NCBI GenBank assembly: GCA_020722365.1 | Contig: DYKY01000001.1 | Span: 15,357-79,356, forward strand | Length of the DNA: 64,000 nucleotides | Direction: 5' to 3' | Origin: Thermoflexus sp. | GTDB lineage: Bacteria; Chloroflexota; Anaerolineae; B4-G1; SLSP01 | Shown here: in pieces, positions 37,414-61,762 of the stretch | Layout of the letters: every line of letters begins with the position of its first letter | Numbering within the stretch: the stretch's first letter is position 1 | Made by a program: the position numbers and the translations under genes | The notes under the pieces: model-generated | The model's input: the letters and a program-made list of their open reading frames with translations, nothing else | The model's database searches: none | Told to the model about the DNA's origin: nothing

Positions 37414-38352
37414 TCACTTGCCAACTTTTTGCGCATAGGTGGTGAAAAGGTCGCCCAGGTTGATCCGCAGCGCCACTTCGCGCAGTTTCAGCCACGTCAC
37501 CAGGCGCTCCAAAGGGCGTCCCACCAAGGGCAATAGCGCCGTCACCCGGCTCGCCAGATAACCCGCTTGCAGATAACGGCCCTGCGCCCCCATCCATCGC
37601 ACACGGAATCCGGCCTTGTTCAGCATAGCGACCAACGTATGGCGTGAGAAGTAGAACAGGTGCATTTCCATATACCAGGGCCAACGCCGGCCCATCAAGC
37701 GCGAGAAGAGGCTATCGATGTCCATCGTATGGACGACAAGCAGACCACCAGGTTCGAGCGCGCGCCACGCGGCCTGCAATGTACTGAATGGATCGGGGAC
37801 ATGTTCGATCACGTCCCACATCGTAACCACACTGAAATGACCGGCGGGAAAATCGGCGTTTTCGAGCGTGCCCAGGTGCATCTGCAGGCCCTGCGCGCGG
37901 GCTTGTTCGACCGCCCATGTGCTCGGTTCAATGCCCCAGGCATCCCACCCATGGCGCATCGCAATGTCCACAAAGACACCAGTATGCGCCCCCACATCGA
38001 GCAACCGACGCCCATTGGCGGGGCCGGTAAAGCGTTCCATAGGCCGCAGATGGTGTTCGAAGGTCAACACGCGCCCCTCGCGTTCTTCGACGTACAGGGG
38101 GTCTTGCACGGCTTCGTAGATGTCAAGCACCTCAGCGCTTTGCGGTCTGGGATCAGCATAGACAAATCCGCACTGGTTACATGCGACGATGGGGCCGTGA
38201 TAACCATAACCGCCACTGGTGCAAGCGTAGGAATTCCAGTCGGCATGCTTTTGGCGATCGAGGGTGGAAGGGATGCGCACCACGTAATCATCCGCCCCGC
38301 ACAGGTTACAGCGGATGTGCTCCAGCGGAGGCTCGGGTTCGAGGGACGTCAT
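37414..38352 (-). CDS. Class I SAM-dependent methyltransferase with an N-terminal zinc ribbon.
   Basis: CNLCGADDY...C..C pairs, then motif [12 protein letters not shown]. Confidence 0.7.
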
Positions 38353-39104
38353 GCCGCCTTCCCCAACAGGCGCATGCGGAAGAGACGCAGGACGGTATAG
38401 AGCGCCTTTACAATCTCGTTCCGCGATATTTTGGACACACCCTGTTGGCGGTTCTGGAAAATGATGGGGACTTCACCGACGTTCCAACCGGCACGTTGCA
38501 CCCGGTAAAGCATTTCGATAAGAAAAGAATAGCCGTTGGAGAAAATCTGGTCGAGGGCAATGGACTCTAACACTTGGCGGCGATAACAACGAAAACCGGC
38601 GGTCGTATCGTGCGCTTGCAGACCAAGTAACACCCGAGCGAAGGCGTTCGCCCCCCAGCTCAGCATCTTGCGGGGCAACGTACACTCGATGGCGGCGCCG
38701 CCCGGCACGTAGCGGCTGCCGATCACCAGATCGTAGCCCTGCCCAATCTTGGCAACCATATCGGGAATGTTTTTGGGCGGATGCGAGAAGTCGGCGTCCA
38801 TCGTGATGATGAGATCGTACCCGGCAGCGATCGCCTTGTGGAAGCCGGCAATGTACGCCGTGCCCAAGCCCAGCTTGCCGGCGCGGTGAATGCCATGGAC
38901 GCGGCCCGGATGCTCATCCGCCAGCCGCTCGGCGATGGCGCCGGTGCCGTCAGGCGAGTTGTCATCGACGATAATAACGTCAACGACAACGGGCAACGCG
39001 AGAAGCTGGGTGACGAGCGCTTCGATGTTCTCTTTTTCGTTATAGGTTGGGACGATGACGGTTGTTTTCATTGGTTTTTCCATAGATTTATTCAGGGAAG
39101 ACAA
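38349..39104 (-). CDS. GT2 glycosyltransferase, polyprenol-phosphate mannose/glucose synthase (Dpm1-like).
   Basis: [17 protein letters not shown]...[10 protein letters not shown]. Confidence 0.75.
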
Positions 39105-39487
39105 GTGAAACCTTGTTCGGCGAAATGACGGTCAAAGGTGAAAACCTGACGAATGCCTAAATGCCGCATCAGAGCGAAGCTGGTACAATCCACAAGGCTA
39201 AGCTGTCGTTGACGATGGGTCAGCAAAACATTCACCGCCAGATTGTGCATGTCAACGTCTATCCACTCGATATGGAGTGGGCCCAGCATATCTTCGTGCA
39301 GTGTCGCCACGGCATCCACGCCCAAGCGATGCTGCACCAAAGCCGTAGTCTCAAGCACAATGTAATTACTGGTAATGAACTGCGCATCCTGAGTTAGCCA
39401 CGTTCGCCAGGCTGCGCCCGCCGAAATGTGAAAACGATCCCCGCGATTCAAAATCGCCAGAAATGCAGATGTGTCAACGAAAATCAC
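39092..39487 (-). CDS. vapC: PIN-domain toxin VapC.
   Basis: [13 protein letters not shown]... PIN fold. 4-nt overlap with the upstream RHH gene. Confidence 0.7.
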
Positions 39488-39747
39488 AGCGCGGCATCCT
39501 CGTAAGCTTGTACCAGATAGAGATCGTGATTCTCTGCCAAATCGGGCAGCTCACTATGATAGCGTCCCACAGCCGCAATAGCGCGACGCCGGCGTTCATC
39601 CGAGGAAACCACCACCTCGCGCTTAGTCTGCAACAGCATATCCACCGCCTCGCGCACCAGTTCGGCTACGGCGACTTGATAGTGGGCCGACAATTCTTTC
39701 AGCACGCGATATTGTTGTTCTTCCAACTGGATTTGGGTACGGATCAT
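39484..39747 (-). CDS. vapB: Ribbon-helix-helix antitoxin (VapB/CopG-like).
   Basis: MIRTQIQLEEQQYRVLKELSAHYQVAVAELVREAV is an RHH pattern. Confidence 0.6.
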   Translation of the reverse strand: MIRTQIQLEEQQYRVLKELSAHYQVAVAELVREAVDMLLQTKREVVVSSDERRRRAIAAVGRYHSELPDLAENHDLYLVQAYEDAAL

Positions 39748-39932
39748 GGCACTCCTTGCTATGATAACATGCTTACACTTTTGCCATCATGATACCATAA
39801 ATACTCGAGACTACATAGCTACTACCGCTCTCCAATATTGAATGCATGACACAGTATGCATTGTAACGTGTTGGGGGAATTCGGCAAGGAGGGAATTATC
39901 AAGACATGCAAGTGGTATGTGAATATGGTGCG

Positions 39933-40742
39933 TCATCGGTTTAGCCGTCGGTACAGAGGAAGCATCAGTCTCAATAACCATTGAGAAACTCGTCCATAAT
40001 GTTTGGCATAGAAATATATCAGACTATCATAGTAAGCGTTTTGTGCTTTTGGATTCTTCTTTAGGCTCTGTCCACCTAAGTGAACAATCTCAACCTGGGG
40101 ATTGTAATATACTTTCCAACCGGCCTTGCGGATGCGCAAACACCAATCATTATCCTCGAAGTACATGAACATATTCTCATCCAGCAATCCTGTCTGTTCG
40201 ATGGCGGCGCGACGCGCCAGCAGACACGCGCCGGAAACCCAATCTACGGGTTGTGTTTGTTCCGTCGCCCAATCGTGGAGATGACGGTGCAAGGCCACTT
40301 GGTTGAAACCACGCCGCAGTAGATAACCCGGCGTAGGATCGCCGCCAAAAGCGTAGGGCTGCGGCGTCCCATCCGGGCGTAACAGGCGTGGACTGACGGC
40401 GCCGGCTTCCGGGTGGGTGTCCATAAAGCGCACCAGGGTGCGCAACGATCCCGGTTTGACGATGGTATCGCTGTTGAGCAGCAAAATGTAGGATACATCT
40501 GCGTTGACGGCGCGAATCCCCAGATTGTTGCCGCGCGCAAAGCCCAGGTTTTCCGCACTGCGGATAAGTTGCACGTCCGGGAAGTCGCGCGCGACCATGT
40601 CGGCGCTGCCGTCGGTGGAGGCGTTGTCTACGACGATGATGTGGTAATCCAGGCCGGCCGCGCCGTCCGGGATGGAGTGCAGGCAGGCGGCGAGGAGGTC
40701 GGCGGTGTTCCAGGAGAGGAGGAGGAGGGCGAGGGTTGTCAT
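39933..40742 (-). CDS. GT2 glycosyltransferase (rhamnosyl/galactosyl-transferase-like).
   Basis: LSWNTADLLAACL...IIVVDNASTDGS, DxD-containing GT-A fold. Confidence 0.7.
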   Translation of the reverse strand: MTTLALLLLSWNTADLLAACLHSIPDGAAGLDYHIIVVDNASTDGSADMVARDFPDVQLIRSAENLGFARGNNLGIRAVNADVSYILLLNSDTIVKPGSLRTLVRFMDTHPEAGAVSPRLLRPDGTPQPYAFGGDPTPGYLLRRGFNQVALHRHLHDWATEQTQPVDWVSGACLLARRAAIEQTGLLDENMFMYFEDNDWCLRIRKAGWKVYYNPQVEIVHLGGQSLKKNPKAQNAYYDSLIYFYAKHYGRVSQWLLRLMLPLYRRLNR

Positions 40743-41680
40743 GAGGGTTGCGCTTTATGGGCGCTCAGCACATAAGTTTCGCCACGTACCCCTATGTGTT
40801 GGACCAACCAATCGTCCAGTTTACGCAACCGCCGGGCCAGTTTGATTTCGCGTTCACGTGAACCAAGCCGGAGATGACCGGCTACTACATTGGCGAACGC
40901 CTGGGGGGTTTGGTAACTTTCCACGACAAAATGTTGGCGAATGAGGTCAATGGCCTCCGAGCCGGTAATATCTTCAAAAGGCGAGCGGGGCGGCAGAACA
41001 AAAGCGGCCGGCGCTTGACGGTTAGGAAGAAGATATTTGTAAACTCGCGCCATCAAACGGTTGAAGATGTGCAGGGGCTTGCGCCAATAAGGGACTTCGG
41101 TGGGGAGGATGAACAAGAAAAAGTAGCGCAATAAGCGCCCGGCGAGCGAAGGTTCCATGTGATCCAGACAAATCAACGCGCCGCCGGGTTTCAGGGATTT
41201 TTCGATTTGCGCCATCAGGCTGGGCAAATCCAACACGTGGTGGAACGCCGCGATTGCCAATACCACGTCATAGGTATTCGCCGCCAATCCTAGCCGATTA
41301 AGATCGCCCACAAACAAGTTGACCGCGCCGGGCCAATGTTCAGCTTGATGGCGGGTCGCAATTTGCCGCATACCTTCTCGCACCAACCCCCAGGAAATAT
41401 CTACTCCATCTACACGGCAGCCCCGGCGGGCTAACTGGATGGCAAGATCGCCACTGGCGCAGGCCAATTCCAGGATATGTTTCCCGCGCGCCACCGCCAG
41501 GTCGAGGGTGTGCGCAAGTAGGTCCCCGGCGACGACCGCGGCCAGTTCTGGATCCCGCGTCGCAGCCAGACTCATATCTACCTCGCCACGCGCCCGACGC
41601 TCCCAGAAGTCCGCTTCTTGACGGAGCATTTCGTAGTATGCAGGTGTACCAATATCGTCGGTTGAGATTTTGTTTGGCAT
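40739..41680 (-). CDS. Class I SAM-dependent methyltransferase.
   Basis: Motif I ILELACASGDLAIQLA. Confidence 0.65.
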   Translation of the reverse strand: MPNKISTDDIGTPAYYEMLRQEADFWERRARGEVDMSLAATRDPELAAVVAGDLLAHTLDLAVARGKHILELACASGDLAIQLARRGCRVDGVDISWGLVREGMRQIATRHQAEHWPGAVNLFVGDLNRLGLAANTYDVVLAIAAFHHVLDLPSLMAQIEKSLKPGGALICLDHMEPSLAGRLLRYFFLFILPTEVPYWRKPLHIFNRLMARVYKYLLPNRQAPAAFVLPPRSPFEDITGSEAIDLIRQHFVVESYQTPQAFANVVAGHLRLGSREREIKLARRLRKLDDWLVQHIGVRGETYVLSAHKAQPS

Positions 41681-41702: not shown

Positions 41703-42857
41703 TTATCCGGCATTGATAAGCTGCAAAATCGTAGTGACGCGCTGCTGCCAATCGTGGGCAGCCGCCACAGCCTCCGCTTGCTGATGGAAAACGCAGGCTG
41801 CGGTATTCTGGGCAACCTGGAGGGCGGCGGCTACCCATGCCTGGGGTGAATCGGCCAGCGTACACCAGTCCGCATAACGGGCCAGTTCTTGCGTTGCCGT
41901 CGCCACAACCGGCACTCCCGCCGCCGCATATTCAAACAACTTAACGGGGTTCACGGCCTGTGTCAATGGCCCTATTTTAAACGGGATCAAAGCCACATCG
42001 AAGCCGGCCAGGTATTCGGGCAATTGGGTATAGGGGCGCGGCCCCAGGATATGCAGATTAGCCGGTAATGAGGTGGGTGGGGGGATTTCCCATGGGCCGA
42101 TAACAATCACACTGCTATGCGGGGCAGCTTGCGCCAGGGCCATCATGCTGTCTAAGTCAGTCCACGGCCCAATGGTCCCAATGTAGCCGAAACGCGGATG
42201 CGGGTAGGTCTGTAGATCGGCAGCTTCGGTCAACCCGGCGCGCGCACGGGAAAAATGTGCTACATCCACACCGTTTGGAATCAGGTGGGTGTTGGCATTG
42301 ATCTGGCGGCATTTTTCTAGCAGGGGCTGTGCTGTCGCCAGTACGAGATCGGCGCGGCGGAGTAAATCGCGCTCCATCGCGGTGATGAGGGCGTGTTCCT
42401 GTCCGCTGAAAAAACCAGGGTAGTTATCCATGCAATCGAAGACTACCCGGCGCTCATGCAAATGGCCCATAAGATCAACATCGGTGGGGAAAGACAGCCA
42501 GAGCAAGGGGGCGGAGATAGCCAGGCGGCGCATGATCGGACGTAATTGAGCCGCCAACCACCGCTGATTCAGGCGGTTAATGTTCCGCGCCCGACGGCTA
42601 AAGGGCAAGGCCGGGGCAGGAGTGAAGAGCCACAAGGATTCACCCAATGACTCCAGGGTGGGTCGCCAACGCCGTCGCGTCGTTTGGCGCATCGTTCGCC
42701 AAATGTGCGTGGCAAAGGAGTAGCTGACCGGATTTACATACAGGACCCGGTGGGTCGCAGCCAGCCGTTCGGCCAGATGCTGTGGGCGTTGTTTGATGCT
42801 GCGCCAATCGTTGACGCCACAAAAAACGATGTCATTCATACGCGCGGCCCAGCCCAC
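41703..42857 (-). CDS. Glycosyltransferase, GT-B fold (GT1/GT4-like).
   Basis: Length and C-terminal GT-B pattern. Tentative. Confidence 0.5.
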   Translation of the reverse strand: MGWAARMNDIVFCGVNDWRSIKQRPQHLAERLAATHRVLYVNPVSYSFATHIWRTMRQTTRRRWRPTLESLGESLWLFTPAPALPFSRRARNINRLNQRWLAAQLRPIMRRLAISAPLLWLSFPTDVDLMGHLHERRVVFDCMDNYPGFFSGQEHALITAMERDLLRRADLVLATAQPLLEKCRQINANTHLIPNGVDVAHFSRARAGLTEAADLQTYPHPRFGYIGTIGPWTDLDSMMALAQAAPHSSVIVIGPWEIPPPTSLPANLHILGPRPYTQLPEYLAGFDVALIPFKIGPLTQAVNPVKLFEYAAAGVPVVATATQELARYADWCTLADSPQAWVAAALQVAQNTAACVFHQQAEAVAAAHDWQQRVTTILQLINAG

Positions 42858-43975
42858 CAGTTTTCAAGTATATCTACAATACGTTTTGCGGTCTGACCGT
42901 CGCCATACGGATTGCTGGCCTGGGCCATCGCGCTATAGGCGTGTTGATCGGAAAGCAGATGGGTGGTTTCCCTGACGATTGACTCCGTATCTGTGCCCAC
43001 CACGCGCAGGGTGCCGGCGGCAATGCCCTCAGGACGCTCGGTAACGTTGCGCAATACCAGCACCGGCTTTCCCAGACTTGGCGCTTCTTCCTGAATGCCG
43101 CCCGAATCGGTGAGAATCAGATAGGCGCGTTGCATCAGATGAACAAACGGTTCGTAATCCAGCGGCTCGACCAGGTGGACGCGCGCGACCTGGCTTAACT
43201 CGGCCTCCACGATTTGCCGCACAACCGGGTTTTTATGGACGGAAAAAACTATAACGATATCGTTGAAAGCCTGCACCAACTGCCGGATGGCTGCGCAGAT
43301 ATTCCGAATAGGTTGGCCCCAGTTTTCCCGGCGGTGGGCCGTGACCAGAAGCACGCGTGCTCGATCAAAATTCAGGCTATTCAAAGGCGCGGTATCGAAC
43401 GTGTAAGGACGGTGTGCGACGGACAAAAGCGCATCAATGACAGTATTCCCGGTAACGTAAATGTGGGCGTCGGGTATATTTTCGCGCAAGAGGTGCTCGC
43501 GGGCTGCTGGTGTAGGCGCAAAGTGCAGGTCGGCCAAAACGCTGGTGAGCCGCCGATTCATTTCTTCCGGGAAGGGTTGGAATTTGTCGTAGGTGCGCAA
43601 ACCCGCCTCGATGTGGCCGATGGGGATTTTGAGATAGTAAGCTGCCAATGAGGCCGCCAAGACTGTCGTTGTGTCGCCTTGCACCAACACAATGTCGGGG
43701 CGCTCTGTTTCCAGAATCGGCTTGAGGCTCAGCATGGCCTGCGTCGTGATCTCGAAGGGGCTTTGTCCGGCGCGCATCAGGTCTAAATCGTAATCGGGCG
43801 TGATGGCAAACAGGCGCAAGACCTGATCGAGCATCTCGCGGTGTTGCGCAGTAACCACCACAACCTGGCGCAAGCGGTCGGGGCGTTGGGCGAGGCATTG
43901 AATGACCGGCGCCATCTTAATGGCCTCGGGGCGGGTGCCGAAAATGGTCATGACCTTAACTAACTTTGACAGCAT
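42836..43975 (-). CDS. wecB: UDP-N-acetylglucosamine (or UDP-2,3-diacetamido-hexuronate) 2-epimerase, non-hydrolysing (WecB/WbpI family).
   Basis: MTIFGTRPEAIKMAPVI N-terminus and full-length epimerase_2 pattern. Confidence 0.8.
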   Translation of the reverse strand: MLSKLVKVMTIFGTRPEAIKMAPVIQCLAQRPDRLRQVVVVTAQHREMLDQVLRLFAITPDYDLDLMRAGQSPFEITTQAMLSLKPILETERPDIVLVQGDTTTVLAASLAAYYLKIPIGHIEAGLRTYDKFQPFPEEMNRRLTSVLADLHFAPTPAAREHLLRENIPDAHIYVTGNTVIDALLSVAHRPYTFDTAPLNSLNFDRARVLLVTAHRRENWGQPIRNICAAIRQLVQAFNDIVIVFSVHKNPVVRQIVEAELSQVARVHLVEPLDYEPFVHLMQRAYLILTDSGGIQEEAPSLGKPVLVLRNVTERPEGIAAGTLRVVGTDTESIVRETTHLLSDQHAYSAMAQASNPYGDGQTAKRIVDILENWWAGPRV

Positions 43976-44896: not shown

Positions 44897-46192
44897 CTAT
44901 TCTGCTATCTCGGTTAGAACTGTCGCAAGTCGCCGGGTAAGCATACGCCGATCAAAACGGGTCAACAACGTCTCCGATGAGCAGTAGTCATCAGGCTGAG
45001 TATACACCGTTTCAAACATCGTTAACAATGCCTCGGCAATGGCAGCGGCGTCATCTGGCAGGGCAACTGTGCCAATTTGTTCCTGAGCAACAATGTCGCT
45101 AATCAGGCCAGACGGCGCCAGCGCCAGAATGGGGCGGCGGGCTGCCAGGTATTCGAAAAACTTGTTCGTAAACGTCATGCGCGCCAATTCTGTGTTGGGC
45201 AAGACAAGCAACAAGACGTGAGCCTGGCGCATGGTTGCGATGGCTACATCATGCGTGACAAAACCGGCAATATCCACATAATTTTCCAGTCCTTTGAGCC
45301 GGGCATGGTAATCAGGCGCAATCTGCCCAACAAATCTAACTGACACAGCGTTGCGAAAATCGGCACTTTGCTCTAACGCCAGTCGCAATCCTTCTGGGAA
45401 GGCGTTATTCACTTGTGGGCCGAGAATAGTCCCTGCATACGTTATCACAAACTTGTTACCCGTCACGGGTGGCGGCGGGCCGATAAAATCTTCCGGGTCA
45501 AAGCCATTGGTGATGGTGAGACATTTTGAGGCCACTTGCGGCCCGAAAACTTGCTGGGTTTGCTGCATCAGAGGTTCTGTGACCATCACCGCGCGGTCAC
45601 AGGTCTCTAGGATCCGTCGCTCGATCCGGCGCTGGCGCGCAAAGTGCCCGCCGCCCAGCGCGCGCAATGCCGGGTTCCCTACCGTCCAGGCATCCCGGAA
45701 GTCGGCCACCCACGGCAACCTATGATGTATGTGCAATTTATGTCCAATCAGATGCACAGAATTGGGGGGCGACGTTGTCAGCAGCGCATCACATGGGAAT
45801 TCTTGCAACGCCTGTAGGCAGGTTTGATAGGCTTTTTCAACCCAAAGCACGTTGGTGTCGGGGACGAAAGCCCGGCGCAACGCCTGCACGAGATGTTGTT
45901 TGCCGCGCGCGCCTTTCCCTGGTTTACCAGACGGTTCCGCGATCGGTAGGGCCGTTTTTGGGGAAGGAGGGCGTATCATCTGTAGCCACTTCGGCCATCC
46001 TACTCGATAAACTGGCAGACCTGATGGTATATCCCGGACGAGACTTTCATCCGGGTTCCAGTCTGTATCTGAACACACCACTACCGGCTGCCAGCCAAAT
46101 TCCGGCAGGTATTTAGCAAATTTGGTCACGCGGATGGCGCCGGTGCCACCTTGTGGGGGAAAGTCGAAGGAGACGATCAGAACGCGCTTCAT
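44897..46192 (-). CDS. GT4-family glycosyltransferase.
   Basis: GT-B fold with E..E C-terminal motif. 431 aa. Confidence 0.6.
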   Translation of the reverse strand: MKRVLIVSFDFPPQGGTGAIRVTKFAKYLPEFGWQPVVVCSDTDWNPDESLVRDIPSGLPVYRVGWPKWLQMIRPPSPKTALPIAEPSGKPGKGARGKQHLVQALRRAFVPDTNVLWVEKAYQTCLQALQEFPCDALLTTSPPNSVHLIGHKLHIHHRLPWVADFRDAWTVGNPALRALGGGHFARQRRIERRILETCDRAVMVTEPLMQQTQQVFGPQVASKCLTITNGFDPEDFIGPPPPVTGNKFVITYAGTILGPQVNNAFPEGLRLALEQSADFRNAVSVRFVGQIAPDYHARLKGLENYVDIAGFVTHDVAIATMRQAHVLLLVLPNTELARMTFTNKFFEYLAARRPILALAPSGLISDIVAQEQIGTVALPDDAAAIAEALLTMFETVYTQPDDYCSSETLLTRFDRRMLTRRLATVLTEIAE

Positions 46193-47391
46193 GATATCGC
46201 AAACCCTTCTCGCAACCGCCGCGCCGCCTCATGCAGCGTGACTTCTTTCTTGGCAAAATTGAAGCGCACGCGGGTTCTGCCCCCTGAACCGGCGTAGAAA
46301 CTCGATCCTGGCACTACCGCGACGCCAACCTCACGCGCAATGTATTCGGCGAAGGCCCGGTCGTTACTCCATTCCGGCAAATACGTCTCGCCGCGCTGCC
46401 AGGTCAAGTCGCCAAAGTCGGCCATCACGTAGTAAGCGCCTTCGGGCCGGCAATAGGGCATTGCGGCCGCGTCCAGCGCTGCCAGCAGGAGCTCACGGCG
46501 CGCGCTATATTGCGCTCGCATATCAACATAATAGGATTCCGGCAAGCCCAATGCGACACAGCCGGCCGCTTGAAAAGGCGCGGGGGCGCACACGGTGAGG
46601 TAATCATGGACTTTGCGAATGAGCGCAGTCAACGGTTCAGCCGCCACTGCCCAACCCACCCGCCAGCCGGTCACGGCATACGTCTTCCCCAGGCCGCAGA
46701 TGGTCACTGTGCGATCCTGCATCCCCGGCAGGCTGCCAATGCTGATATGGCGGCGTCCATCATAGAGAATGTGTTCGTAGATTTCATCGGTGACGGCGAT
46801 TACCCCAAATTCCTGGCACAGCGCCGCGATGGTTTCTAATTCGGGTTGGGTGAAGACCCGTCCGGTAGGGTTGTGAGGGGTATTGAGCAAAATTAGCCGG
46901 GTGCGCGTGTTAAATGCCGCGCGCAGTTCATCTGGATCAAAGGTGTAGGTCGGCTCGCGCAAAGGCACAAAGCGTGGGCGCGCGCCGGCCATCTGGCAGT
47001 CAGGGACATAATTTTCATACCAGGGTTCCAGAATGATGACTTCGTCGCCGGGTTCGGTCAGGGCCAGCAGCGTTGACATAATGGCTTCGCTGACGCCACA
47101 TGTCACCGTGACCTCGGTTTCGGGATCGGCCGGGATGTGATTGTAGCGGGCCGATTTCGTGGCAATCGCTGCGCGAAAGTCCGGTGAGCCAAACGGGAAG
47201 GTGTATTGGTTGTCGCCGCTCTGAATGGCGGTTACCGCCGCGGCCAGGACCGCCGGCGGGGAATCAAAGTCCGGCAGTCCTTGCGATAGATTGACGGCGT
47301 CGGTTTCGTCTCCCAGGCGCGTCATCTCCCGGATGACGGATTCCTGGAAGGGCGCAGTACGGCGTGAGAATGGCTTGTGCTGGATGCTCAT
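46189..47391 (-). CDS. PLP-dependent aminotransferase, class I/II (AspB/methionine-aminotransferase-like).
   Basis: Fold-type I pattern with the PLP lysine in ICGLGKTYAVTGWRVGW. Confidence 0.7.
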   Translation of the reverse strand: MSIQHKPFSRRTAPFQESVIREMTRLGDETDAVNLSQGLPDFDSPPAVLAAAVTAIQSGDNQYTFPFGSPDFRAAIATKSARYNHIPADPETEVTVTCGVSEAIMSTLLALTEPGDEVIILEPWYENYVPDCQMAGARPRFVPLREPTYTFDPDELRAAFNTRTRLILLNTPHNPTGRVFTQPELETIAALCQEFGVIAVTDEIYEHILYDGRRHISIGSLPGMQDRTVTICGLGKTYAVTGWRVGWAVAAEPLTALIRKVHDYLTVCAPAPFQAAGCVALGLPESYYVDMRAQYSARRELLLAALDAAAMPYCRPEGAYYVMADFGDLTWQRGETYLPEWSNDRAFAEYIAREVGVAVVPGSSFYAGSGGRTRVRFNFAKKEVTLHEAARRLREGFAIS

Positions 47392-49513: not shown

Positions 49514-49523
49514 CATAGCACTC

Positions 49524-50531: not shown

Positions 50532-50541
50532 ACGGGTAGCC

Positions 50542-51507: not shown

Positions 51508-51545
51508 GCTGTACTCCTTTGTTCCCTTGGGGTAGAAATGTGTTT

Positions 51546-52802
51546 CTATGTGCGTTCTGAAACGAGTTCATTCAAAACCTGGGCAATCCGTTCCATGTTT
51601 TTGCTGTTCTCAAATTGAGCGATGTAGGCTTGATCGGATTGGAAGTTTCTAAATTCTCCATGGCGCCATTGCGCAAAGATATTTTGTAATTGCTGCTTCA
51701 TTTTTGCGCGGTCGAAAGAAAGGACAAACCCGGCCTGGGCTTCACGGATGAGACGCGCCGGGTCACCCTCTGCTGGCAATAACCCTAGAATGGGCCTATT
51801 CATCCGCATATATTCGTACAGTTTGGTGGGCGTCCACTGGGCATACGGCGGCATCACTACGAAGACGAAATCTCCGCCCATCGCAAATGATAACGCCTTT
51901 CGCCGGGGCAGATTGAGAATACATATCGTATTAGGTTGCTTCAAGGAATGAGCCGCTGTTGCTCCCCGCCCAATGAAAAACACCTCTGCGGTCGGTTCTA
52001 GTTCATTAACCACGCTGAGAAAAGTACGAATGGATTCTTCAAAAGCCGGGTAATAAGTACCAAGAAAGGAAATGGTGATTCTATCCGATGGCGCTGGACG
52101 GGGTGTCAGGCCAGCAAAGGTGGTCTCTTCATAGCCATTGGTGACAATGGCGACTTTGTCTTCGGGGATATGATACAGGTCTGCCCAGCGTTGTTTAACA
52201 TGCCAATGCACCACCACTATCTTGTCAGCAGTCTGTAGAATTTGACTTTCCGCCCTTCGAATCTGGCGCTTATACCACCAGCGCAACGGCGCTATGAGAC
52301 CGCGGTCCAGTTCTGCATTGAGAAAATCATTGACGGCCCACCCGTCTTGGAAATTGGCGACCCAGGGAATGTCAAATTCTTGTCTCAAGCGCATAGCCAC
52401 AAAGGCGGTGGTAAAAATGGGGGAGACGCTATAAATGACATCTATTTTCTCGCGCTGGAGGATATCCCGGGCCGCTTGATATGCTGGGCGCAGCCAGGCT
52501 TGATAAGAGTCAGGGAAATCGGCTGCGATTTTTAGCTTGCGGCGCGTATAGGACAACCAGCGTGGCGGCTCATAGTGACCAACGCGACACACTTCGGTTT
52601 CCGCAGGGATTTCTTTCAGAGTGCTGTACTCCTTGTCATAACTGACGCTTTCAGCAGCCGAAAGAATAATGGGGCGCCAACCGAGCGGCGGCAGGTATTT
52701 AGCAAACGCCAGTCCGCGCCAACTTGAAGCGAGGGGGGAAAAAGTATAGTCAATATACAATAATTTTTTCATTGATCGTACTGCCCTCAAATATTGGCCC
52801 AT
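51546..52802 (-). CDS. Glycosyltransferase (GT-B, GT4-like).
   Basis: Length and composition. Tentative. Lower GC than the genome average. Confidence 0.45.
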   Translation of the reverse strand: MGQYLRAVRSMKKLLYIDYTFSPLASSWRGLAFAKYLPPLGWRPIILSAAESVSYDKEYSTLKEIPAETEVCRVGHYEPPRWLSYTRRKLKIAADFPDSYQAWLRPAYQAARDILQREKIDVIYSVSPIFTTAFVAMRLRQEFDIPWVANFQDGWAVNDFLNAELDRGLIAPLRWWYKRQIRRAESQILQTADKIVVVHWHVKQRWADLYHIPEDKVAIVTNGYEETTFAGLTPRPAPSDRITISFLGTYYPAFEESIRTFLSVVNELEPTAEVFFIGRGATAAHSLKQPNTICILNLPRRKALSFAMGGDFVFVVMPPYAQWTPTKLYEYMRMNRPILGLLPAEGDPARLIREAQAGFVLSFDRAKMKQQLQNIFAQWRHGEFRNFQSDQAYIAQFENSKNMERIAQVLNELVSERT

Positions 52803-54283
52803 AATCGGGTGAATTTCTCGGACGCGTTCCGCAGATAGGCGAAAACTGTTGCTTGTTCTGATTCAGTCAAGACTTTACTTACAAAGGCGAGTGCGATGAA
52901 AAGCAGCCCACTGACCGTTAGTTTAACCAAGAGCGAGAGTACTGGCGCGGTTAGGTTGAGACTATAACCCACGCCGAGGGTGATGAAGACGCATACCGCG
53001 AGGCGAGCTAACGTCTTCCAATCATGCCCGACAGGATAGATTCTTTCCATCCACAGATAGAGTAATCCGTCTAGCAGCAAATAGGCGGCTACAGTCGTTA
53101 ATGCTGCACCAAGCGCGCCCATGATTGGTAGAACTAGAAAATTGATACCGATATTAAAACCGGCGGCTATGATGCAGATTATCGAAGTCACTTCCGGCTT
53201 TTTGACTAACAGACCCGCCAGTGAGCCAGAGATTGTCGCAAAATATAACAGATAGGCAAACGTTACCAGAGGCACAAATCGCACCGCTTCCAGATATTGC
53301 GGGTTGGCGCCAAAGGTGGTCACGAAAATTCGCACCAAGTCGCCGCTGCCCAGGCTAATCATCAAGTAGACGAAGCTGCCAATCAGACAGTAATAGACCA
53401 ACAGTCGCCGCAATAAGGCTTTAATGTCCGTCTCCGCATTGCGCGCTGCATAGCCAAAAAAGAAAGGGTCAATCAAAAGACTGGCCGGCGCTGCCAGCAC
53501 AATCCGAAAGATGTTGGCTAAATTGTAGGAGAGGGAATAAACTCCCACCACCCCCGCCCCGGCGAAGCGCAGCAGCAACAGCCGGTCGGACACTTCCAAA
53601 CCCCATACTGCCAACCCACTGAATATAAAGGGGAGCCCGAGTCGCAGCAATTGTTTGAACAGCCCTAAATCAAAATTGAAACGCACATAGCGCCTGGAAA
53701 ACAATCCCATCAGAACTAAAGTTAGCCCACTGGCGATGGCGCCAGATTCAAAATACCCTTCCACACCGCGTTGCCCGTATACAATGAAAAGCAATTTCAG
53801 AACAAAATCGGCCAGAAACCCGAACAGGGAGAAGCCCACATACATCCCGGCTTTTTTCTCCAGTCGGAAAAGGTTATAAGGCACATTCTGCAACTGGGTG
53901 AAAATAAAGACCCATCCCAATCTTTGGATGGCGCCTTCATTACCACTGGCCTGGAACAGTAATCGGCAGATCAAAGTGGATTGGGTAAGCAGAAACAATC
54001 CACCTAACCCCGAAACCACAATATACCATAACCAGGTGGTTCCCACCAGCTTTTTTAATTGCGCCCCCTCCATTTCGTAATACAGTCGCACCAGGCCATT
54101 GAGCACCCCGGCGCTGAGAACGAGGCTGGTTAAGCCCATGATGGTGGTGAGAACTGAAATAATTCCATAATCGGCTGCCGGAAAGAAGCGCAAGTAGAGG
54201 GGCAACATAATAAACCGCAGCGCGGTCTGGAGAATGTTTCCCACTCCGTAGGTCAGAAACTTGTTGAGGATATTTTTGAGCAT
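52787..54283 (-). CDS. wzx: Oligosaccharide flippase (Wzx/MOP-superfamily polysaccharide transporter).
   Basis: 498 aa, ~12-14 TM helices, typical polysaccharide biosynthesis protein N-terminal pattern. Confidence 0.65.
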   Translation of the reverse strand: MLKNILNKFLTYGVGNILQTALRFIMLPLYLRFFPAADYGIISVLTTIMGLTSLVLSAGVLNGLVRLYYEMEGAQLKKLVGTTWLWYIVVSGLGGLFLLTQSTLICRLLFQASGNEGAIQRLGWVFIFTQLQNVPYNLFRLEKKAGMYVGFSLFGFLADFVLKLLFIVYGQRGVEGYFESGAIASGLTLVLMGLFSRRYVRFNFDLGLFKQLLRLGLPFIFSGLAVWGLEVSDRLLLLRFAGAGVVGVYSLSYNLANIFRIVLAAPASLLIDPFFFGYAARNAETDIKALLRRLLVYYCLIGSFVYLMISLGSGDLVRIFVTTFGANPQYLEAVRFVPLVTFAYLLYFATISGSLAGLLVKKPEVTSIICIIAAGFNIGINFLVLPIMGALGAALTTVAAYLLLDGLLYLWMERIYPVGHDWKTLARLAVCVFITLGVGYSLNLTAPVLSLLVKLTVSGLLFIALAFVSKVLTESEQATVFAYLRNASEKFTRLWANI

Positions 54284-54289
54284 GGCGGG

Positions 54290-55018: not shown

Positions 55019-55027
55019 ATTGAAATA

Positions 55028-56976: not shown

Positions 56977-56982
56977 AGCGCC

Positions 56983-57210
56983 TCACTCAGTCACAATCGC
57001 CGTCTGCGCTCCGTGTGATCCCGAACCGACGCCCAGGTTCACATCCGGCTGCGGCAGATCCAGCTCGGCGAAGAACACTGCCGACATATTCTCATCATAG
57101 TGCTGCCCGGTATGCACCAGGATTTCGGTATGATTCTGCCGCAGGGCGCGACTTACCGGCCCGGCCTTAATGAATTGCGGGCGCGCACCGACGATGGAAA
57201 CTATTTTCAT
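56983..57210 (-). pseudogene. Truncated N-terminal fragment (~75 aa) of a UDP-GlcNAc 2-epimerase.
   Basis: [23 protein letters not shown]...[12 protein letters not shown] matches a WecB N-terminus but terminates after ~75 codons. An intact wecB is at 42836-43975. Confidence 0.6.
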
Positions 57211-57223
57211 CACGAATGCATCC

Positions 57224-57733
57224 TCATACCACACACCGACAACCACATTCCAGATCCAATGTGACAGGCGAGAGATAATGATCGGTTTTTTCGCGCCGAA
57301 AGTGTAACACCAGAGAGGTATAGGGGTCAAACACCACGACATCTTTGATGCCTTGCGCCAGATAAAAACGTGGCGCAAATTCCAGGTCTTTGGCCTCATA
57401 CCCTTTACTCACGACCTCAATCACCGCTTCCGGTATCAGGGTGATGGCGGTTTCTTCTTCCGCAGGTCTGCTGCAAAAGATGGCAATATCTGGCCGCTTC
57501 AGGGAACCATCGGGAAAAGTAACATAAACATCCGAAATGTGCAGACAGGCACACCCTTCGGCTACGGTATGTGGTCGAGGCGTGGGTTGAATCGTCGCGC
57601 GAATACGATCAATCGCTTCTTGATGTTTCCACACCGGGTGCGCTTCCCACAAAGGCAATCCCCCTACGATTTCCAGGCGCACGCCCACATCATCGGCTTG
57701 TTGAAATAGATGTTCCAGACTGCTTTGCGCCAT
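57224..57733 (-). CDS. Uma2-family (DUF820) PD-(D/E)xK endonuclease-like protein.
   Basis: 169 aa. Motifs ...EAVIEVVS...[13 protein letters not shown] typical of Uma2. Confidence 0.6.
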
Positions 57734-57749: not shown

Positions 57750-59069
57750 TTACCCTTGCCCCACCCGCCGGTAAATCAACCCGGCTCGCTGCGCCTGTTC
57801 CGCACTGAACGCGCCGCGTCCATCCACCACAATCGGCGTGGTTAGCGCGGCCCGGAGTGCGCGCAGGTCTATGTTCTGATACTCCGTATGTTTGACCATC
57901 ACCACGACCGCATTGCATCCCTGCGCCATCGCCAGCACGTTGCCCTGATAACCCGGCACGAAGGGGTCATGAACCAGCACCTCCGCACTCCATTCCCGCA
58001 ACCACGTCGCCAGCACCTCGCTGGGACTGTTGCGCGTATCGTCGGAGTCTTCCAGGTAAGCGTAGCCCAACACCAGAATGCGCGTCTCTTCCAACTCCTT
58101 GCCGGCGATCTCCAGGGTCTCTTCCAGCAATTTGAGGATGTGCAACGGCATCCCATCATTGACGGCGCGCGCGGCCGGGATGAGCCGAATGGGAATTTTG
58201 TTCCACGCTTCGTAGGCCAGCAGCCACGGGTCTTTGGTGATGCAGTGTCCGCCGACGCCGGCGCCCGGATAGAGCATCATCCGCCCTGGCGACTTGTTCA
58301 CCAGCTCGCGCACTTTCCACACATCCCCGCCGACCGCCTCGCAGATCAACGCCACTTCATTGGCAAAGGCGATGTTCACGTCACGGTAGGCGTTCTCCAC
58401 CGTCTTCACCAGCTCCGCCGTCACGCAATCCGCCGGGTCGAGATCCGCCTGGACGATGTGACGATAGAGTGCGATCATCGTTTGCGCCGTTTCCGGCGTT
58501 TCACCGCCGCAGACGCGACTCACGCCGCGCAAATTGGCGAGCAACTTCCCCGGCATCACCCGCTCTGGGCAATGACCGAGGTAAAAATCAACGTTGGCGC
58601 GCTTGCCGGACGATTCTTCCAGCAAAGGTTTGACCAGGCGCGCCATCGTGCCGGGCGCGATGGTCGATTCAACAATAATCAGCGCACCGGACTGCAACAC
58701 CGGGCCGAGATCGCGCAAGGCGCTCCGCAAGGCAACGTACTGCGGCACGTGCTGCTCATCCACTGGCGTCTCCACACTGATGGTGACGACATCGCAATCG
58801 TGCAGGTCAGCATACTGCGTGGTTGTGTGCAGCCGCCCCTCCGCAACAACCGTTGCCAACAGCTCAGCCAGCCCCGGCTCGCGTCCCTCGATAGGCGAAA
58901 TCCCGGCGTTGATCGCATTCACGCGCTCCGCCTTGAGGTCCACGCCTACCACGTTGAATCCTGCCTCGGCGAACAGACACGCCACCGGCAATCCCACGTA
59001 CCCCAGCCCGATTACACCGAGCCGGGCAGTCTGCGTAGAAATTCTCTGCTGCAAAAAATCCAAACTCAC
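57750..59069 (-). CDS. UDP-N-acetyl-D-glucosamine/mannosamine 6-dehydrogenase (WbpA/WecC family).
   Basis: N-terminal NAD motif LGVIGLGYVGLPVA and the UDP-glucose/GDP-mannose dehydrogenase family pattern. Confidence 0.8.
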   Translation of the reverse strand: MSLDFLQQRISTQTARLGVIGLGYVGLPVACLFAEAGFNVVGVDLKAERVNAINAGISPIEGREPGLAELLATVVAEGRLHTTTQYADLHDCDVVTISVETPVDEQHVPQYVALRSALRDLGPVLQSGALIIVESTIAPGTMARLVKPLLEESSGKRANVDFYLGHCPERVMPGKLLANLRGVSRVCGGETPETAQTMIALYRHIVQADLDPADCVTAELVKTVENAYRDVNIAFANEVALICEAVGGDVWKVRELVNKSPGRMMLYPGAGVGGHCITKDPWLLAYEAWNKIPIRLIPAARAVNDGMPLHILKLLEETLEIAGKELEETRILVLGYAYLEDSDDTRNSPSEVLATWLREWSAEVLVHDPFVPGYQGNVLAMAQGCNAVVVMVKHTEYQNIDLRALRAALTTPIVVDGRGAFSAEQAQRAGLIYRRVGQG

Positions 59070-59070
59070 C

Positions 59071-60075
59071 CTACACCTCGATCACGCACTGCGTTTTACC
59101 AGATTCGACGACCGCCAATGCCAGACGTAAAGCAACCAATCCGTCAACGCCACTTACCGGCACAGGAGTGTTGTTCAGCACCGCAGATGTGAAGGCTTCC
59201 AGTTCGGCCCGTAAAGGCTCGTAACGTTGGATGGGATAACGCACCATCCGCCCCTCACGCACACCCTTAAGGATGCTGAGATGGTTCCAGGCCGAGCCAC
59301 TCACTTCGGCGTTCTCGTAGAAGAAGAGATCTTGCATAAGATCATCAGCGCGGAACATCCCCTTCTCACCGAGCACCACAACCTCGCGCACCTTTTGCGG
59401 CGTCAGCCAGTTGATGTCCAACACGCCGGTCATCTCATTGTCGAAGCGCAAGAGTGCCGTCACCAAATCCTCGTGCTCCGTGTGAATACGCTGCTCCGTC
59501 TCGGCAAAGACGCGCACCGGCTCGGCTCCACTGATGAAGCGCATCAAGTCCAGATCGTGCGGTGCCAGATCAATAACCACGCCCACATCCCGCACGCGGG
59601 GTGGAAACGGTCCCACGCGCCGGCACACGATCTGGAAAATCTTCCCCAATTCACCTGCCGCCAGGTGCGCCTTCAACGCCTGGATTGCCGGGCTGAAGCG
59701 CATGATATGGCCGACCATCAAGCGCCGCCCAAGCGCCTCGGCATAGTCGATGAGCGTCTGCGCCTCCTCCACAGTTGCAGCAATCGGCTTCTCGACCAGC
59801 ACATCGGCGCCGGCGCGCATCGCCATTTCCGCCACTTCCCGGTGGTAGCGCGTCGGGACGGCAACCGTGACCACATCCGGTTGCTCGTGTTCCAGCAGTT
59901 CGCGGTAATCCACGTAGGCCGGGACACCATGCTTGGCAGCGATCTGTTGCCCCATCTGTGGATTGACGTCCGCCACGCCAACAAGTTTGGTTTGGGCGAT
60001 CTCCGTGTAGACACGCGCATGATGCTGTCCCATCGCGCCAACGCCGATGACAGCGGCTTTCAAGTGTGCGCTCAT
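59071..60075 (-). CDS. Gfo/Idh/MocA-family oxidoreductase (WbpB-like UDP-GlcNAcA 3-dehydrogenase).
   Basis: AVIGVGAMGQHHARVY Rossmann N-terminus. Adjacent to the DegT aminotransferase and an LbH acetyltransferase. Confidence 0.7.
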   Translation of the reverse strand: MSAHLKAAVIGVGAMGQHHARVYTEIAQTKLVGVADVNPQMGQQIAAKHGVPAYVDYRELLEHEQPDVVTVAVPTRYHREVAEMAMRAGADVLVEKPIAATVEEAQTLIDYAEALGRRLMVGHIMRFSPAIQALKAHLAAGELGKIFQIVCRRVGPFPPRVRDVGVVIDLAPHDLDLMRFISGAEPVRVFAETEQRIHTEHEDLVTALLRFDNEMTGVLDINWLTPQKVREVVVLGEKGMFRADDLMQDLFFYENAEVSGSAWNHLSILKGVREGRMVRYPIQRYEPLRAELEAFTSAVLNNTPVPVSGVDGLVALRLALAVVESGKTQCVIEV

Positions 60076-61156
60076 TCGCCCTCCATAAAGCCGTTAACCG
60101 CCGTGACGATGACATCCAAATCGGTTTGAGTCAACGCCGGATGCACCGGCAGCGAGAGCACTTCTTCTGTGGCCCGCTCGGCTTCCGGCAAGTGCTGGGC
60201 GTAGCCCAACTGCTGCGTGTAATACGTCTGCTGGTGAATTGCCACGGGATAGTAGATGCCGAATCCGATCCCGTTTGCCTTGAGATGCTCTATCAATGCA
60301 TCGCGACGACCATCAGGGACGCGGATGGTGTACTGGTGGAACACGTGAACGTACCCGTCAGGCGTAACCGGGACGCCAACCCCGCGCAGATTCGCGTTGA
60401 GATAGCGCGCATTGGCGATGCGGGCCGCGTTGAATTGCTCCAGTTTGTGGAGCTGCGCCAACCCAATGGCCGCGTGAACATCGGTCATGCGAAAATTGAA
60501 GCCGAGTTCGTCGTGGTAATAGCGCCGTCTCATCCCATGCTGGCGAATGACCTGGCAGTTCTCGGCAATGCGCGCGTCGTTGGTGGTGATCATACCACCT
60601 TCCGCCGAGGTAATATTTTTGGTGGGATAGAGCGAGAACGTACCCGTTCCCCACGCGCCAGCGCGCTTGCCGTGCAGAGACGCTCCGTGGGATTGGCAGG
60701 CGTCCTCGATCACAACCAGACCATACTTGTCGGCCAAAGTCTGAATCGCGTCCATGTCGGCCATCAGCCCGAACAAGTGCACCGGTAAAATCGCCTTCGT
60801 GCGCGGTGTGATGGCAGCCTCGATCTGCGCCGGGTCCAGGTTGAACGTCGCCGGATCGATGTCCACGAAGACCGGCCTGGCTCCGGTGAACAAGACGCTG
60901 TTCGCCGATGCAATGAACGTAAACGGCGAGGTGATGACCTCATCCCCAGGGCCGATGTCGTGCGCCAGCAGCGCCACGTGCAGCGCCGTCGTCCCGCTGC
61001 TGGTCGCAATCGCATACTGCACGCCGCACATCGCAGCGAAAGCTTCCTCGAAAGCCTTGACTCGTGGCCCTTGCGCCAGCATACCGGAATCCAAAACTTC
61101 AAGAACTGCTTGTTTTTCTTCATCCCCGATGAGGGGTTTTGCAATGGAAATCACTG
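60072..61156 (-). CDS. DegT/DnrJ/EryC1-family aminotransferase (WbpE-like).
   Basis: GDEVITSPFTFIASANSV and PLP-Lys in FSLYPTKNITS. Probable GTG start with a GGAGG RBS. Confidence 0.75.
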
Positions 61157-61762
61157 TGCCTGCCTCCAGATTTTTAATGGGATAGAAAGCATTTCGTGAC
61201 AGTCGGGACACTGCGCGACGATTCTGTCCTCTTCTTCGTGGTCTGCGACCAACCGGTGTCCGCACGCGCACACAAACCCGATCAGCCGCGCCGGATTGCC
61301 GACGACCAACCCGTGCGCGGGCACATCTTTGGTGACGACAGCGCCCGCGCCCACCATCGCCCACTCGCCAACAACGACCTTGGGCAAGATCGTAGAATTC
61401 GCACCGAGCGCCGCCCCGCGCTTGATCACGATCCGCCCCAACACCCAATCGTCGGCGGCTTTCAACGACCCGTCGGAATTCACCGCACGCGGGAAATTGT
61501 CGTTGGTGAAGCACACGTGCGGGCCAACGAAGACGCCATCTTCGATCTCGACGCCGTGGTAAATCGAGACGTAGTTCTGCACCTTGACGTTGTCGCCAAT
61601 CCGCACGCCAAAGTCCACGTAGACGCCCTTGCCGAGGATACAGTTTTGGCCGATCTGCGCATCCTCGCGCACCTGGCACTGATGCCATATGCTGGTACCG
61701 GAACCGATGTGCGCCTTGTCCGAAACGTCCGCCGTAGGGTGAATTCTCACATTGTCATGCAT
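61151..61762 (-). CDS. Left-handed beta-helix (hexapeptide-repeat) N-acetyltransferase (WbpD-like) with a C-terminal zinc ribbon.
   Basis: Hexapeptide repeats IGSGTSIWHQCQVREDAQIGQNCILGKGVYV and C-terminal CACG...CPDC. Confidence 0.7.
   Translation of the reverse strand: MHDNVRIHPTADVSDKAHIGSGTSIWHQCQVREDAQIGQNCILGKGVYVDFGVRIGDNVKVQNYVSIYHGVEIEDGVFVGPHVCFTNDNFPRAVNSDGSLKAADDWVLGRIVIKRGAALGANSTILPKVVVGEWAMVGAGAVVTKDVPAHGLVVGNPARLIGFVCACGHRLVADHEEEDRIVAQCPDCHEMLSIPLKIWRQAQ

Follow-up and report, generated by a model that had tools for sequence, protein, structure and literature searches.

The window analysed here, a stretch of 64,000 nucleotides from Thermoflexus sp. (GenBank assembly GCA_020722365.1, contig DYKY01000001.1, positions 15,357 to 79,356), harbors a real, largely ordinary, mosaic surface-glycan locus of an uncultured Anaerolineae bacterium. 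On balance, the locus probably serves a Wzx-dependent surface glycan and combines three sugar-precursor modules with assembly genes, one module being a cassette for a carbon-branched amino sugar. The cassette includes a gene pair for the alpha and beta subunits of a thiamine diphosphate (ThDP)-dependent E1 enzyme. Very likely, the pair forms a ThDP enzyme that modifies sugars and does not serve as a metabolic dehydrogenase. The cluster comprises 26 densely packed genes at positions 37414-62387, with every gene-sized open reading frame (ORF) that has a family match on the minus strand. Neighboring genes overlap or lie no more than 38 bp apart, except for a gap of 185 bp upstream of vapB. Families were assigned by Pfam and NCBIfam profile scans of the window ORFs, and the closest structures by comparison with the PDB. 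The unidirectional glycan cluster and the cell-surface role proposed in an initial annotation were borne out. The scans also recovered most of its gene list, including the heterodimeric E1 pair (E1_dh; Transket_pyr plus Transketolase_C), the Wzx flippase, and a second DegT-family aminotransferase beside a class I aminotransferase. The epimerase and the count of methyltransferases did not hold, and the gene for an extended short-chain dehydrogenase/reductase (SDR, 50542-51507) had been missed.

The assignment of the E1 pair rests on its relatives. A scan of a genome collection with the E1 alpha protein yielded 80 further loci (42-57% identity). Window proteins were mapped on the loci by tblastn, and the E2 catalytic motif DHRxxDG was sought within 6 kb of E1. 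Among 85 related loci, a DegT gene lies beside E1 in 14, none of which has the E2 motif, while the motif occurs in 31, none of which has DegT. A neighbor-joining tree separated a clade without E2, comprising 35 members including the window, from the E2-linked group (bootstrap 200/200); the motif was found near E1 in 0 of these 35. Up to two genes on each side of E1, 33 loci without E2 carry DegT (15), SDR (13), Bac_transf (9), Polysacc_synt_2 (8) and methyltransferase (9) genes. Further neighbors are radical SAM (10), SIS (6) and glycosyltransferase (GT) families GT2/GT4, and none of the 25 families listed is an E2 family. In 31 control loci, by contrast, 2-oxoacid_dh, E3_binding and Biotin_lipoyl were each counted 27 times, and no sugar family appeared. 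The clade extends over Chloroflexota, Planctomycetota, Nitrospirota, Acidobacteriota, Bacteroidales, Omnitrophota, Candidate Phyla Radiation lineages and a metagenome-assembled genome (MAG) of Nitrososphaeria. Pfam and NCBIfam scans detected no E2 lipoyl-domain gene within the window, and neither E2 nor E3 is encoded near the E1 pair.

The E1 alpha protein reaches 318 bits with TIGR03182 (cut-off 393.85) and falls under both equivalog cut-offs for pyruvate dehydrogenase (PDH). It retains the ThDP motif and the catalytic His255, together with clade-specific changes, e.g. of GDGxxN to E161 and of Tyr to His210. The order SDR-E1 alpha-E1 beta-DegT recurs in L001 (a bioreactor metagenome contig described below), in L002/L003 and in L007, the Nitrososphaeria MAG. 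Both L018 (Bacteroidales) and L044 (Omnitrophota) have the arrangement GT2, PglC-type transferase, E1 alpha, E1 beta, DegT, in some cases a methyltransferase, and class I aminotransferase. DegT2, the aminotransferase of the cassette, is 56-60% identical to E1-linked DegT proteins of four other phyla, compared with 38% to DegT1 of the same cluster. The lysine binding pyridoxal phosphate (PLP) is kept in all of them. DegT2 thus appears to belong to an orthologue group that is co-inherited with the E1 pair.

Two side observations concern these relatives. The archaeal contig (L007, 7880-13039) shows the order GT4-SDR-E1 alpha-E1 beta-DegT; its SDR is 72% identical to that of the window and its E1 alpha only 55%, which points either to a cross-domain cassette transfer or to mis-binning. 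Members of the clade without E2 (L014, L015, L074 and others) have radical SAM (10 of 117) and SPASM (8 of 117) neighbors as well as six SIS-domain genes. This hints at further sugar-modifying cassettes around E1 pairs without E2.

Two-subunit E1-like enzymes are known to branch sugars. Plm8/9 and AviB1/B2 attach a pyruvate-derived two-carbon (C2) branch onto nucleoside diphosphate (NDP)-keto sugars (PMC4802897), and branching by KbDH-alpha/beta from the kibdelomycin pathway has been tested in vitro (PMC12247030). The aldgamycin and kosinostatin enzymes are of the same two-subunit type, the C2 unit being attached at C3 or C4 of NDP-keto sugars. Afterwards the branch ketone is reduced, methylated, oxidized or, in kibdelomycin, transaminated (PMC12247030, PMC10055692). 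The characterized two-subunit enzymes accept pyruvate only and form C-C bonds (PMC12247030). An in-silico survey cited there (PMC12247030), covering about 120 clusters that encode enzymes of this kind, may already include some of the loci described here. Literature searches on E1 components in O-antigen, capsule or Wzx clusters brought up no relevant work. There is no solved structure among the two-subunit branching enzymes, and the nearest solved structure to the window's E1 is human PDH E1 alpha.

Keto-sugar formation, C-acetylation and branch transamination are proposed for the cassette of SDR, E1 pair, DegT2 and class I aminotransferase on the basis of these two-subunit precedents and of the SDR motif. 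The SDR, encoded directly upstream of E1 alpha, matches the LegB model with 250 bits (cut-off 475) and the RmlB model with 222 bits. Its motif YASSSEVYG corresponds in the alignment to STDEVYG in RmlB and STSEVYG in UXS and is unlike the longer, Glu-less motif of 4-epimerases; YGASK is also present. Because of this active-site motif, the enzyme is a plausible source of a keto sugar, with 4,6-dehydratase, decarboxylase or 4-oxidase chemistry as plausible candidates. In the predicted sequence of reactions, the SDR would form an NDP-4-keto sugar. The E1-like enzyme would decarboxylate pyruvate and add the C2 acyl-anion equivalent to the sugar ketone, yielding a C-acetyl branch. From this ketone, DegT2 would then make a 1-aminoethyl group; that DegT is conserved points to transamination of the acetyl branch, by analogy with kibdelomycin. 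A possible role of the class I aminotransferase is to provide pyruvate and glutamate, or another 2-oxo-acid donor. Its best PDB match is Rv0858c (258 bits), followed by kynurenine aminotransferase/glutamine transaminase K and YbdL.

Table 1. Genes of the glycan cluster and its insertions, from the right to the left end; functions are those suggested by family and structure matches.
Position	Strand	Product	Evidence
61764..62387	-	Uridine kinase (PRK family)	PF00485 143.9 bits; 1 bp upstream of first glycan gene
61151..61762	-	Left-handed beta-helix (LbH) sugar N-acetyltransferase, WlbB/WbpD-like	Hexapep 93 bits; PDB 3mqg 134.6 bits
60072..61154	-	DegT-family sugar aminotransferase 1 (DegT1), WbpE-like role	PF01041 446 bits
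59071..60075	-	GFO/MocA oxidoreductase, probable UDP-GlcNAc(A) 3-dehydrogenase	NF040723 316 bits (cut-off 450)
57750..59069	-	NDP-N-acetylhexosamine 6-dehydrogenase, WecC/Cap5O/WbpA family	TIGR03026 380 bits, above cut-off 189.8
57224..57733	-	Uma2-family endonuclease, inserted relative to L001	PF05685 62.7 bits; absent from L001, present in L086
56983..57210	-	Truncated 2-epimerase stub	PF02350 model positions 5-55 only; first 75 codons
55858..56976	-	GT4 glycosyltransferase	Glycos_transf_1 104.7 bits; Glyco_trans_4_2 101.4 bits
55028..55861	-	Class I S-adenosylmethionine (SAM) methyltransferase	Methyltransf_25 74.8 bits
54290..55018	-	Probable class I SAM methyltransferase, Methyltransf_24/YrrM-like	PF13578 22 bits, under cut-off
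52787..54283	-	Wzx-type flippase	PF13440 Polysacc_synt_3 50.9 bits; PF01943 Polysacc_synt 46.9 bits; about 10 hydrophobic segments
51546..52772	-	GT4-like glycosyltransferase	Glyco_transf_4 51.8 bits, N-terminal domain only; start per L086 gene call
50542..51507	-	Extended SDR, probable NDP-4-keto sugar generator (4,6-dehydratase or decarboxylase type)	GDP_Man_Dehyd 250 bits
49524..50531	-	ThDP-dependent E1 alpha, clade without E2	E1_dh 239 bits; GDG...NN at residues 156-186
48536..49516	-	E1 beta	Transket_pyr 120 bits; Transketolase_C 129.5 bits; 326 residues per L086 gene call
47407..48510	-	DegT aminotransferase 2 (DegT2)	PF01041 358.6 bits; PLP lysine in SFYPFK
46189..47391	-	Class I (amino-acid/2-oxo-acid) aminotransferase	PF00155 211 bits
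44897..46192	-	GT4 glycosyltransferase	Glyco_trans_1_4 41.3 bits
43956..44894	-	Zn-ribbon and class I SAM methyltransferase	Methyltransf_23 102.7 bits; CxxC...CxxC
42836..43951	-	Intact WecB-type non-hydrolysing UDP-GlcNAc 2-epimerase	TIGR00236 509 bits, above cut-off 210
41703..42857	-	GT4 glycosyltransferase, weakly TuaH-like	Glyco_trans_1_2 38.5 bits; TuaH model 93 bits, under cut-off
40739..41680	-	Class I SAM methyltransferase	Methyltransf_11 61.2 bits
39933..40742	-	GT2 glycosyltransferase	Glycos_transf_2 78.4 bits; final gene of L001-shared block
39092..39747	-	VapB-like antitoxin (39484-39747) and PIN/VapC toxin (39092-39487)	PIN 47.9 bits; antitoxin ORF read directly; not in L001
38349..39104	-	GT2, Dpm1/ArnC-like polyprenol-phosphate sugar synthase	Glycos_transf_2 116 bits; outside L001-shared block
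37414..38352	-	Zn-ribbon and class I SAM methyltransferase, left end	Methyltransf_23 105 bits; CxxC...CxxC

What the analysis shows directly is the gene content, the synteny, the clade to which the E1 pair belongs, and the gene decay; the substrates and products named for the cluster enzymes are predictions from family membership and gene context. At the right end, the LbH, DegT1, GFO/MocA and NDP-sugar dehydrogenase genes form a block that fits the UDP-2,3-diacetamido-glucuronate pathway of the archaeal/GnnA type. Related pathways are those of P. aeruginosa (WbpA/B/E/D/I), Bordetella (WlbA-D) and Methanococcus maripaludis (MMP0350-0353/0357). The same four enzyme families are united in one block here, and the order acetyltransferase-aminotransferase-oxidoreductase-dehydrogenase is presumably that of the M. 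maripaludis genes. For the LbH protein, 3mqg, a WlbB-type structure, is followed in the PDB by other 3-amino-sugar N-acetyltransferases. DegT1 matches perosamine synthase (288 bits) and WbpE (258 bits), with similar scores for C3 and C4 aminotransferases. Its listed ORF of 538 residues is over-extended, as the DegT domain starts at residue 187; the homologue in L001 has 360 residues. The dehydrogenase matches structures of UDP-ManNAc dehydrogenase types (4r16, 298 bits; 3g79, 297 bits; Cap5O, 232 bits). The oxidoreductase had been called WbpB-like. It is nearer to UDP-GlcNAc 3-dehydrogenases, NF040723 being an archaeal model of this function, and scores 130 bits against 7bvj, which we take to be GnnA, compared with 61 bits against 3q2k, presumably a WlbA (WbpB-type) structure. 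This proximity suggests the archaeal order of reactions, C3 first and C6 oxidation last. The likely course would be a 3-oxidation of UDP-GlcNAc, transamination, N-acetylation and C6 oxidation, leading to UDP-2,3-diacetamido-2,3-dideoxy-glucuronate.

The initially annotated full set for a UDP-ManNAc(3NAc)A-type sugar was not borne out. At the family level four Wbp-like enzymes are present, while the 2-epimerase reported at the right end consists of its first 75 codons only, beside the Uma2 gene, so that the manno form is not secured. The stub, preceded by the Uma2 gene, ends in ...GAQTAIVTE* with its stop 6 bp before the GT4 start. It is 72% identical to the N-terminus of the full-length epimerase at the same position, just upstream of GT4, in L002/L003, and is therefore a remnant of a cluster epimerase. 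An origin by copying from the 5' end of intact wecB was considered and rejected, as the DNA aligned poorly and tblastn gave no match at the WecB locus (E<10). WecB, encoded 13 kb from the stub, is a diverged paralogue and the only intact 2-epimerase of the cluster. With the dedicated epimerase defunct here and absent from L001, the block likely yields gluco-configured UDP-GlcNAc3NAcA; the manno form would need the generic WecB to accept this compound. As a second precursor module, WecB would supply UDP-ManNAc, and together with the WecC-like dehydrogenase it could instead supply ManNAc or ManNAcA.

The closest relative available for comparison is L001, a JGI bioreactor metagenome contig with proteins named Anaerolineae. 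Gene order is unchanged in it from LbH to the counterpart of the GT2 at 39933, after which a histidine kinase is encoded. An alignment of the window with L001 by blastn yielded colinear blocks at 61153-57748, 56979-43869 and 42839-39937 (73-84% identity), and the maintained cluster genes are 71-95% identical at the protein level. Two stretches are confined to the window, Uma2 with the stub and the body of WecB. About 30 codons of the WecB 5' end are left in an intergenic spacer of L001 (16578-16664). This remnant marks WecB as an ancestral gene later deleted from L001, and a gain by the Thermoflexus genome was rejected on this ground. The other epimerase is wholly lost from L001, and the two lineages each lost 2-epimerase genes independently. 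In this lineage, 2-epimerases are being lost while the remaining cluster is maintained at the above identities. Uma2 and the stub are not assembly artefacts, because the independent assembly L086 (GCA_973415095.1) includes both at 99.994% identity over 16.6 kb.

The low GC content noted earlier for positions 50500-57000 was confirmed by windowed analysis: no 6.5-kb stretch of the 64 kb falls below its value of 0.514 (mean 0.574, standard deviation 0.025), and the window as a whole has 0.576. Low GC in the variable Wzx/GT core is common in surface-glycan loci. L001 has a dip over the same genes, so that the dip arose before the two lineages diverged. On this ground, and because one colinear block spans 56979-43869, a recent insertion with the stub as its border was rejected as the explanation.

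Several findings weigh against the proposed glycan and its branched sugar. No phosphoglycosyltransferase (PGT) or Wzy is linked to the cluster in the window and its 10-kb right flank. The SDR is overall nearest to 4-epimerases (7ys8, 4zrm), only its active-site motif being dehydratase- or decarboxylase-like. DegT2 is most similar to ring C3-aminotransferases and could therefore aminate the ring instead of the branch. The equivalog-level NCBIfam scores of the GFO/MocA, DegT, dehydrogenase, SDR and E1 alpha proteins are all under their cut-offs. The truncated gene and the inserted Uma2 and VapBC genes are possible signs of decay. We know of no polysaccharide with a C-(1-aminoethyl) branch.

Four other explanations were considered. 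The initial annotation had combined UDP-ManNAc(3NAc)A synthesis by a complete five-enzyme set with a YerE-like E1 pair, so that a heavily methylated glycan would carry a branched sugar of the yersiniose type. The four-gene Wbp-like block exists, the intact WecB-family epimerase could in principle act on the diacetamido uronate, and the idea of C2 branching agrees with the reactions preferred here. Nevertheless, the explanation is unlikely: the block's own epimerase is a stub, the intact one scores as a generic WecB, and L001 keeps the four genes without any epimerase. Moreover, YerE is a member of another ThDP family, one of single-chain enzymes (PMC9306805, PMC12247030), and in place of an adjacent YerF-like ketoreductase an aminotransferase is encoded. 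Quite unlikely is a non-carbohydrate substituent, for which the E1 pair and the class I aminotransferase would convert an amino acid via a 2-oxo acid into an aldehyde or acyl unit. An example would be an N-acyl or aminoalkyl group on a 4-amino sugar made by SDR and DegT2, replacing a PglD-type acetylation. In agreement with this, the aminotransferase is of a broad amino-acid/2-oxo-acid type and travels with E1 in L001-L003, L018 and L044. The E1 pair often occurs in a PglF/PglE/PglC-like context where an acetyltransferase is expected, and ThDP branching enzymes of another family use functionalized 2-oxo acids provided by neighboring genes (PMC9306805). However, the restriction of characterized two-subunit enzymes to pyruvate and C-C bonds (PMC12247030) speaks against it, and the class I aminotransferase is missing from many E1-DegT loci. 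We know of no precedent for a ThDP-dependent N-acylation without a redox partner.

An ordinary E1 of a pyruvate or acetoin dehydrogenase, located here by chance and with E2 and E3 encoded elsewhere, is extremely improbable. The beta subunit passes the NCBIfam cut-off of the PDH E1-beta subfamily (342.6 versus 321), and human PDH E1 alpha is the nearest structure. Against these matches stand the sub-threshold alpha subunit, the 200/200 clade in which none of the 35 members has an E2 motif nearby, and its sugar-enzyme neighbors across many phyla. In addition, the order with SDR and DegT persists even in an archaeal MAG, at 55% identity. A decaying or silent locus whose original glycan is no longer made is very unlikely as well. 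The stub, the two insertions (Uma2, VapBC) and the independent loss of WecB in L001, with its 5' remnant, point in this direction. The other 20-odd genes, by contrast, are intact over their full length, each stop overlapping or almost touching the next start, and their proteins are 71-95% identical to those of L001; this argues for purifying selection and a remodelling of the glycan, not its loss.

For assembly of the surface glycan, four GT4 enzymes and one GT2 would build the unit on a lipid carrier, four or five methyltransferases would decorate it, and Wzx would flip it, the initiating transferase being encoded elsewhere. Profile annotation assigned four glycosyltransferases to GT4 (55858, 51546, 44897, 41703) and two to GT2 (39933, 38349). 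Six SAM methyltransferases had been counted; four are clear (37414, 40739, 43956, 55028), one is probable (54290-55018), and no sixth was found in the cluster. The probable one has 242 residues with the motifs LEWGSGYST and FILVDG, and its homologues are named SAM methyltransferase or YrrM, several with PF13578. The two N-terminal zinc ribbons (CxxC...CxxC) annotated before were found in the methyltransferases at 37414-38352 and 43956-44894. The latter gene has the lowest GC content at third codon positions of the cluster (0.39). The absence of an initiating PGT, Wzy and Wzz was likewise confirmed, as none occurred among the scanned or the hydrophobic ORFs of the window or in the 10 kb adjoining it on the right, which encode transporters, VWA proteins and PspA. 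A tblastn search with PglC-type proteins gave no match in the window. Its strongly hydrophobic ORFs are limited to an ABC permease, FtsK, Wzx, a PIN-membrane protein and one unknown, and its other large ORFs are housekeeping genes.

At the left end, the VapBC pair breaks into the cluster. The GT2 beyond it was correctly described as Dpm1-like: its top NCBIfam matches are Dol-P hexose transferase, ArnC, AglJ and PpgS, all under cut-off. This gene and the adjacent methyltransferase (37414-39104) may be a separate module, since they lie beyond VapBC and outside the L001-shared block. Directly after the last cluster gene, a promoter-like site (37405-37378, minus strand, TTGACA-16-TGnTATAAT, 12/12) precedes a gene for a LysM/SdrD_B/SpaA-domain surface protein (35518-37152) and marks a new transcription unit. 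Apart from this perfect site, promoter and terminator scans remained at background level, and an Rfam scan detected no regulatory RNA within the cluster. The uridine kinase gene at the right end is possibly co-transcribed with the glycan genes.

Elsewhere in the window, a thiamine pyrophosphate (TPP) riboswitch (600-708, plus strand, 69 bits) precedes a small ORF and genes for an ABC transporter (permease 2871-4559, ATPase 4675-5727) that likely serves thiamine-related uptake. Its occurrence in one window with a ThDP-dependent glycan enzyme is probably coincidental. A sortase gene (10514-11413, minus strand) would fit surface proteins attached to a wall of the monoderm type. FtsK/SpoIIIE-family genes are located on the plus strand at 6044-7171 (375 residues, truncated-looking) and 16085-18496 (803 residues, full-length). 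The block at 20202-24247 (minus strand) encodes a 653-residue N6/N4 DNA methylase-like protein, a 325-residue protein without family match and an NYN/YacP-like nuclease, and may represent a restriction-modification or defence module. A 418-residue protein (33852-35108, minus strand) with about five hydrophobic segments and a C-terminal PIN domain is a membrane-anchored PIN nuclease. The 421-residue ORF at 62487-63752 is over-called, because a tRNA-Thr(CGU) gene (63568-63641, minus strand) lies inside its 5' part; in L086, the gene call of this region is a 341-residue membrane protein of unknown function.

The E1 cassette is a credible variation on a known type of enzyme system and is more widespread than the literature consulted suggests. 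A further generalization is possible, though rather doubtful: SDR-E1 alpha-E1 beta-DegT, with or without the class I aminotransferase, would represent a widespread route to C-branched sugars, probably with a 1-aminoethyl branch, in surface glycans of many mostly uncultured bacterial phyla and at least one archaeal lineage, often providing the first sugar of a PglC-type transfer. If true, two-subunit ThDP sugar branching would be a general feature of prokaryotic envelopes, not a curiosity of actinomycete antibiotics. Branched sugars of the envelope have so far been attributed to YerE-type enzymes, and two-subunit E1-like enzymes have been described only from antibiotic pathways. A review accordingly assigned lipopolysaccharide branching to YerE-like enzymes and the two-subunit family to secondary metabolites (PMC12247030). 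Should the chemistry hold, a new class of envelope sugar is predicted, as well as many new ThDP carboligases forming tertiary alcohols, which are of biocatalytic interest.

Compared with known systems, the Wbp/Wlb pathway differs from the diacetamido-uronate block in its oxidoreductase, which is here nearer to UDP-GlcNAc 3-dehydrogenases than to WlbA/WbpB, and in its epimerase, here cut to 75 residues. The pyruvate and acetoin dehydrogenase E1 components (alpha2beta2) share their fold families, catalytic His and ThDP motif with the pair described here, which is set apart by its distinct clade, its clade-specific substitutions and the missing E2 and E3 genes nearby. With the bacillosamine cassette PglF-PglE-PglD-PglC, a likeness is seen in L018, L044, L005 and other loci, where the E1 pair occurs with a PglC-type transferase, DegT and PglF-type or SDR dehydratases, in place of the PglD acetyltransferase; the window itself has no PglC-type gene. 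YerE and ErwE/MygE likewise catalyze a ThDP-dependent, acyloin-type addition of a 2-oxo-acid unit to a keto sugar for a surface glycan (PMC9306805). The YerE analogy of the initial annotation thus stands for the C2-branching chemistry and fails for the enzyme family. A single chain of the decarboxylase/acetolactate-synthase superfamily makes up YerE (PMC9306805, PMC12247030), and its hallmark, TPP_enzyme_N/M/C on one polypeptide, is absent from the E1_dh and transketolase-like proteins of the window. YerE and ErwE/MygE are followed by a reductase, the two-subunit pair by an aminotransferase. The closest known analogues are probably AviB1/B2, Plm8/9 and KbDH, an analogy drawn from subunit make-up and gene context. 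They are likewise E1 alpha/beta heterodimers with a ThDP motif and without E2. They lie beside an enzyme that forms an NDP-keto sugar, a role for which the SDR is the candidate here, and the transaminated branch of kibdelomycin parallels the adjacent aminotransferase. The known two-subunit enzymes originate from actinomycete antibiotic clusters, whereas the pair described here resides in a Wzx-type glycan locus of the Chloroflexota and has relatives in many uncultured phyla.

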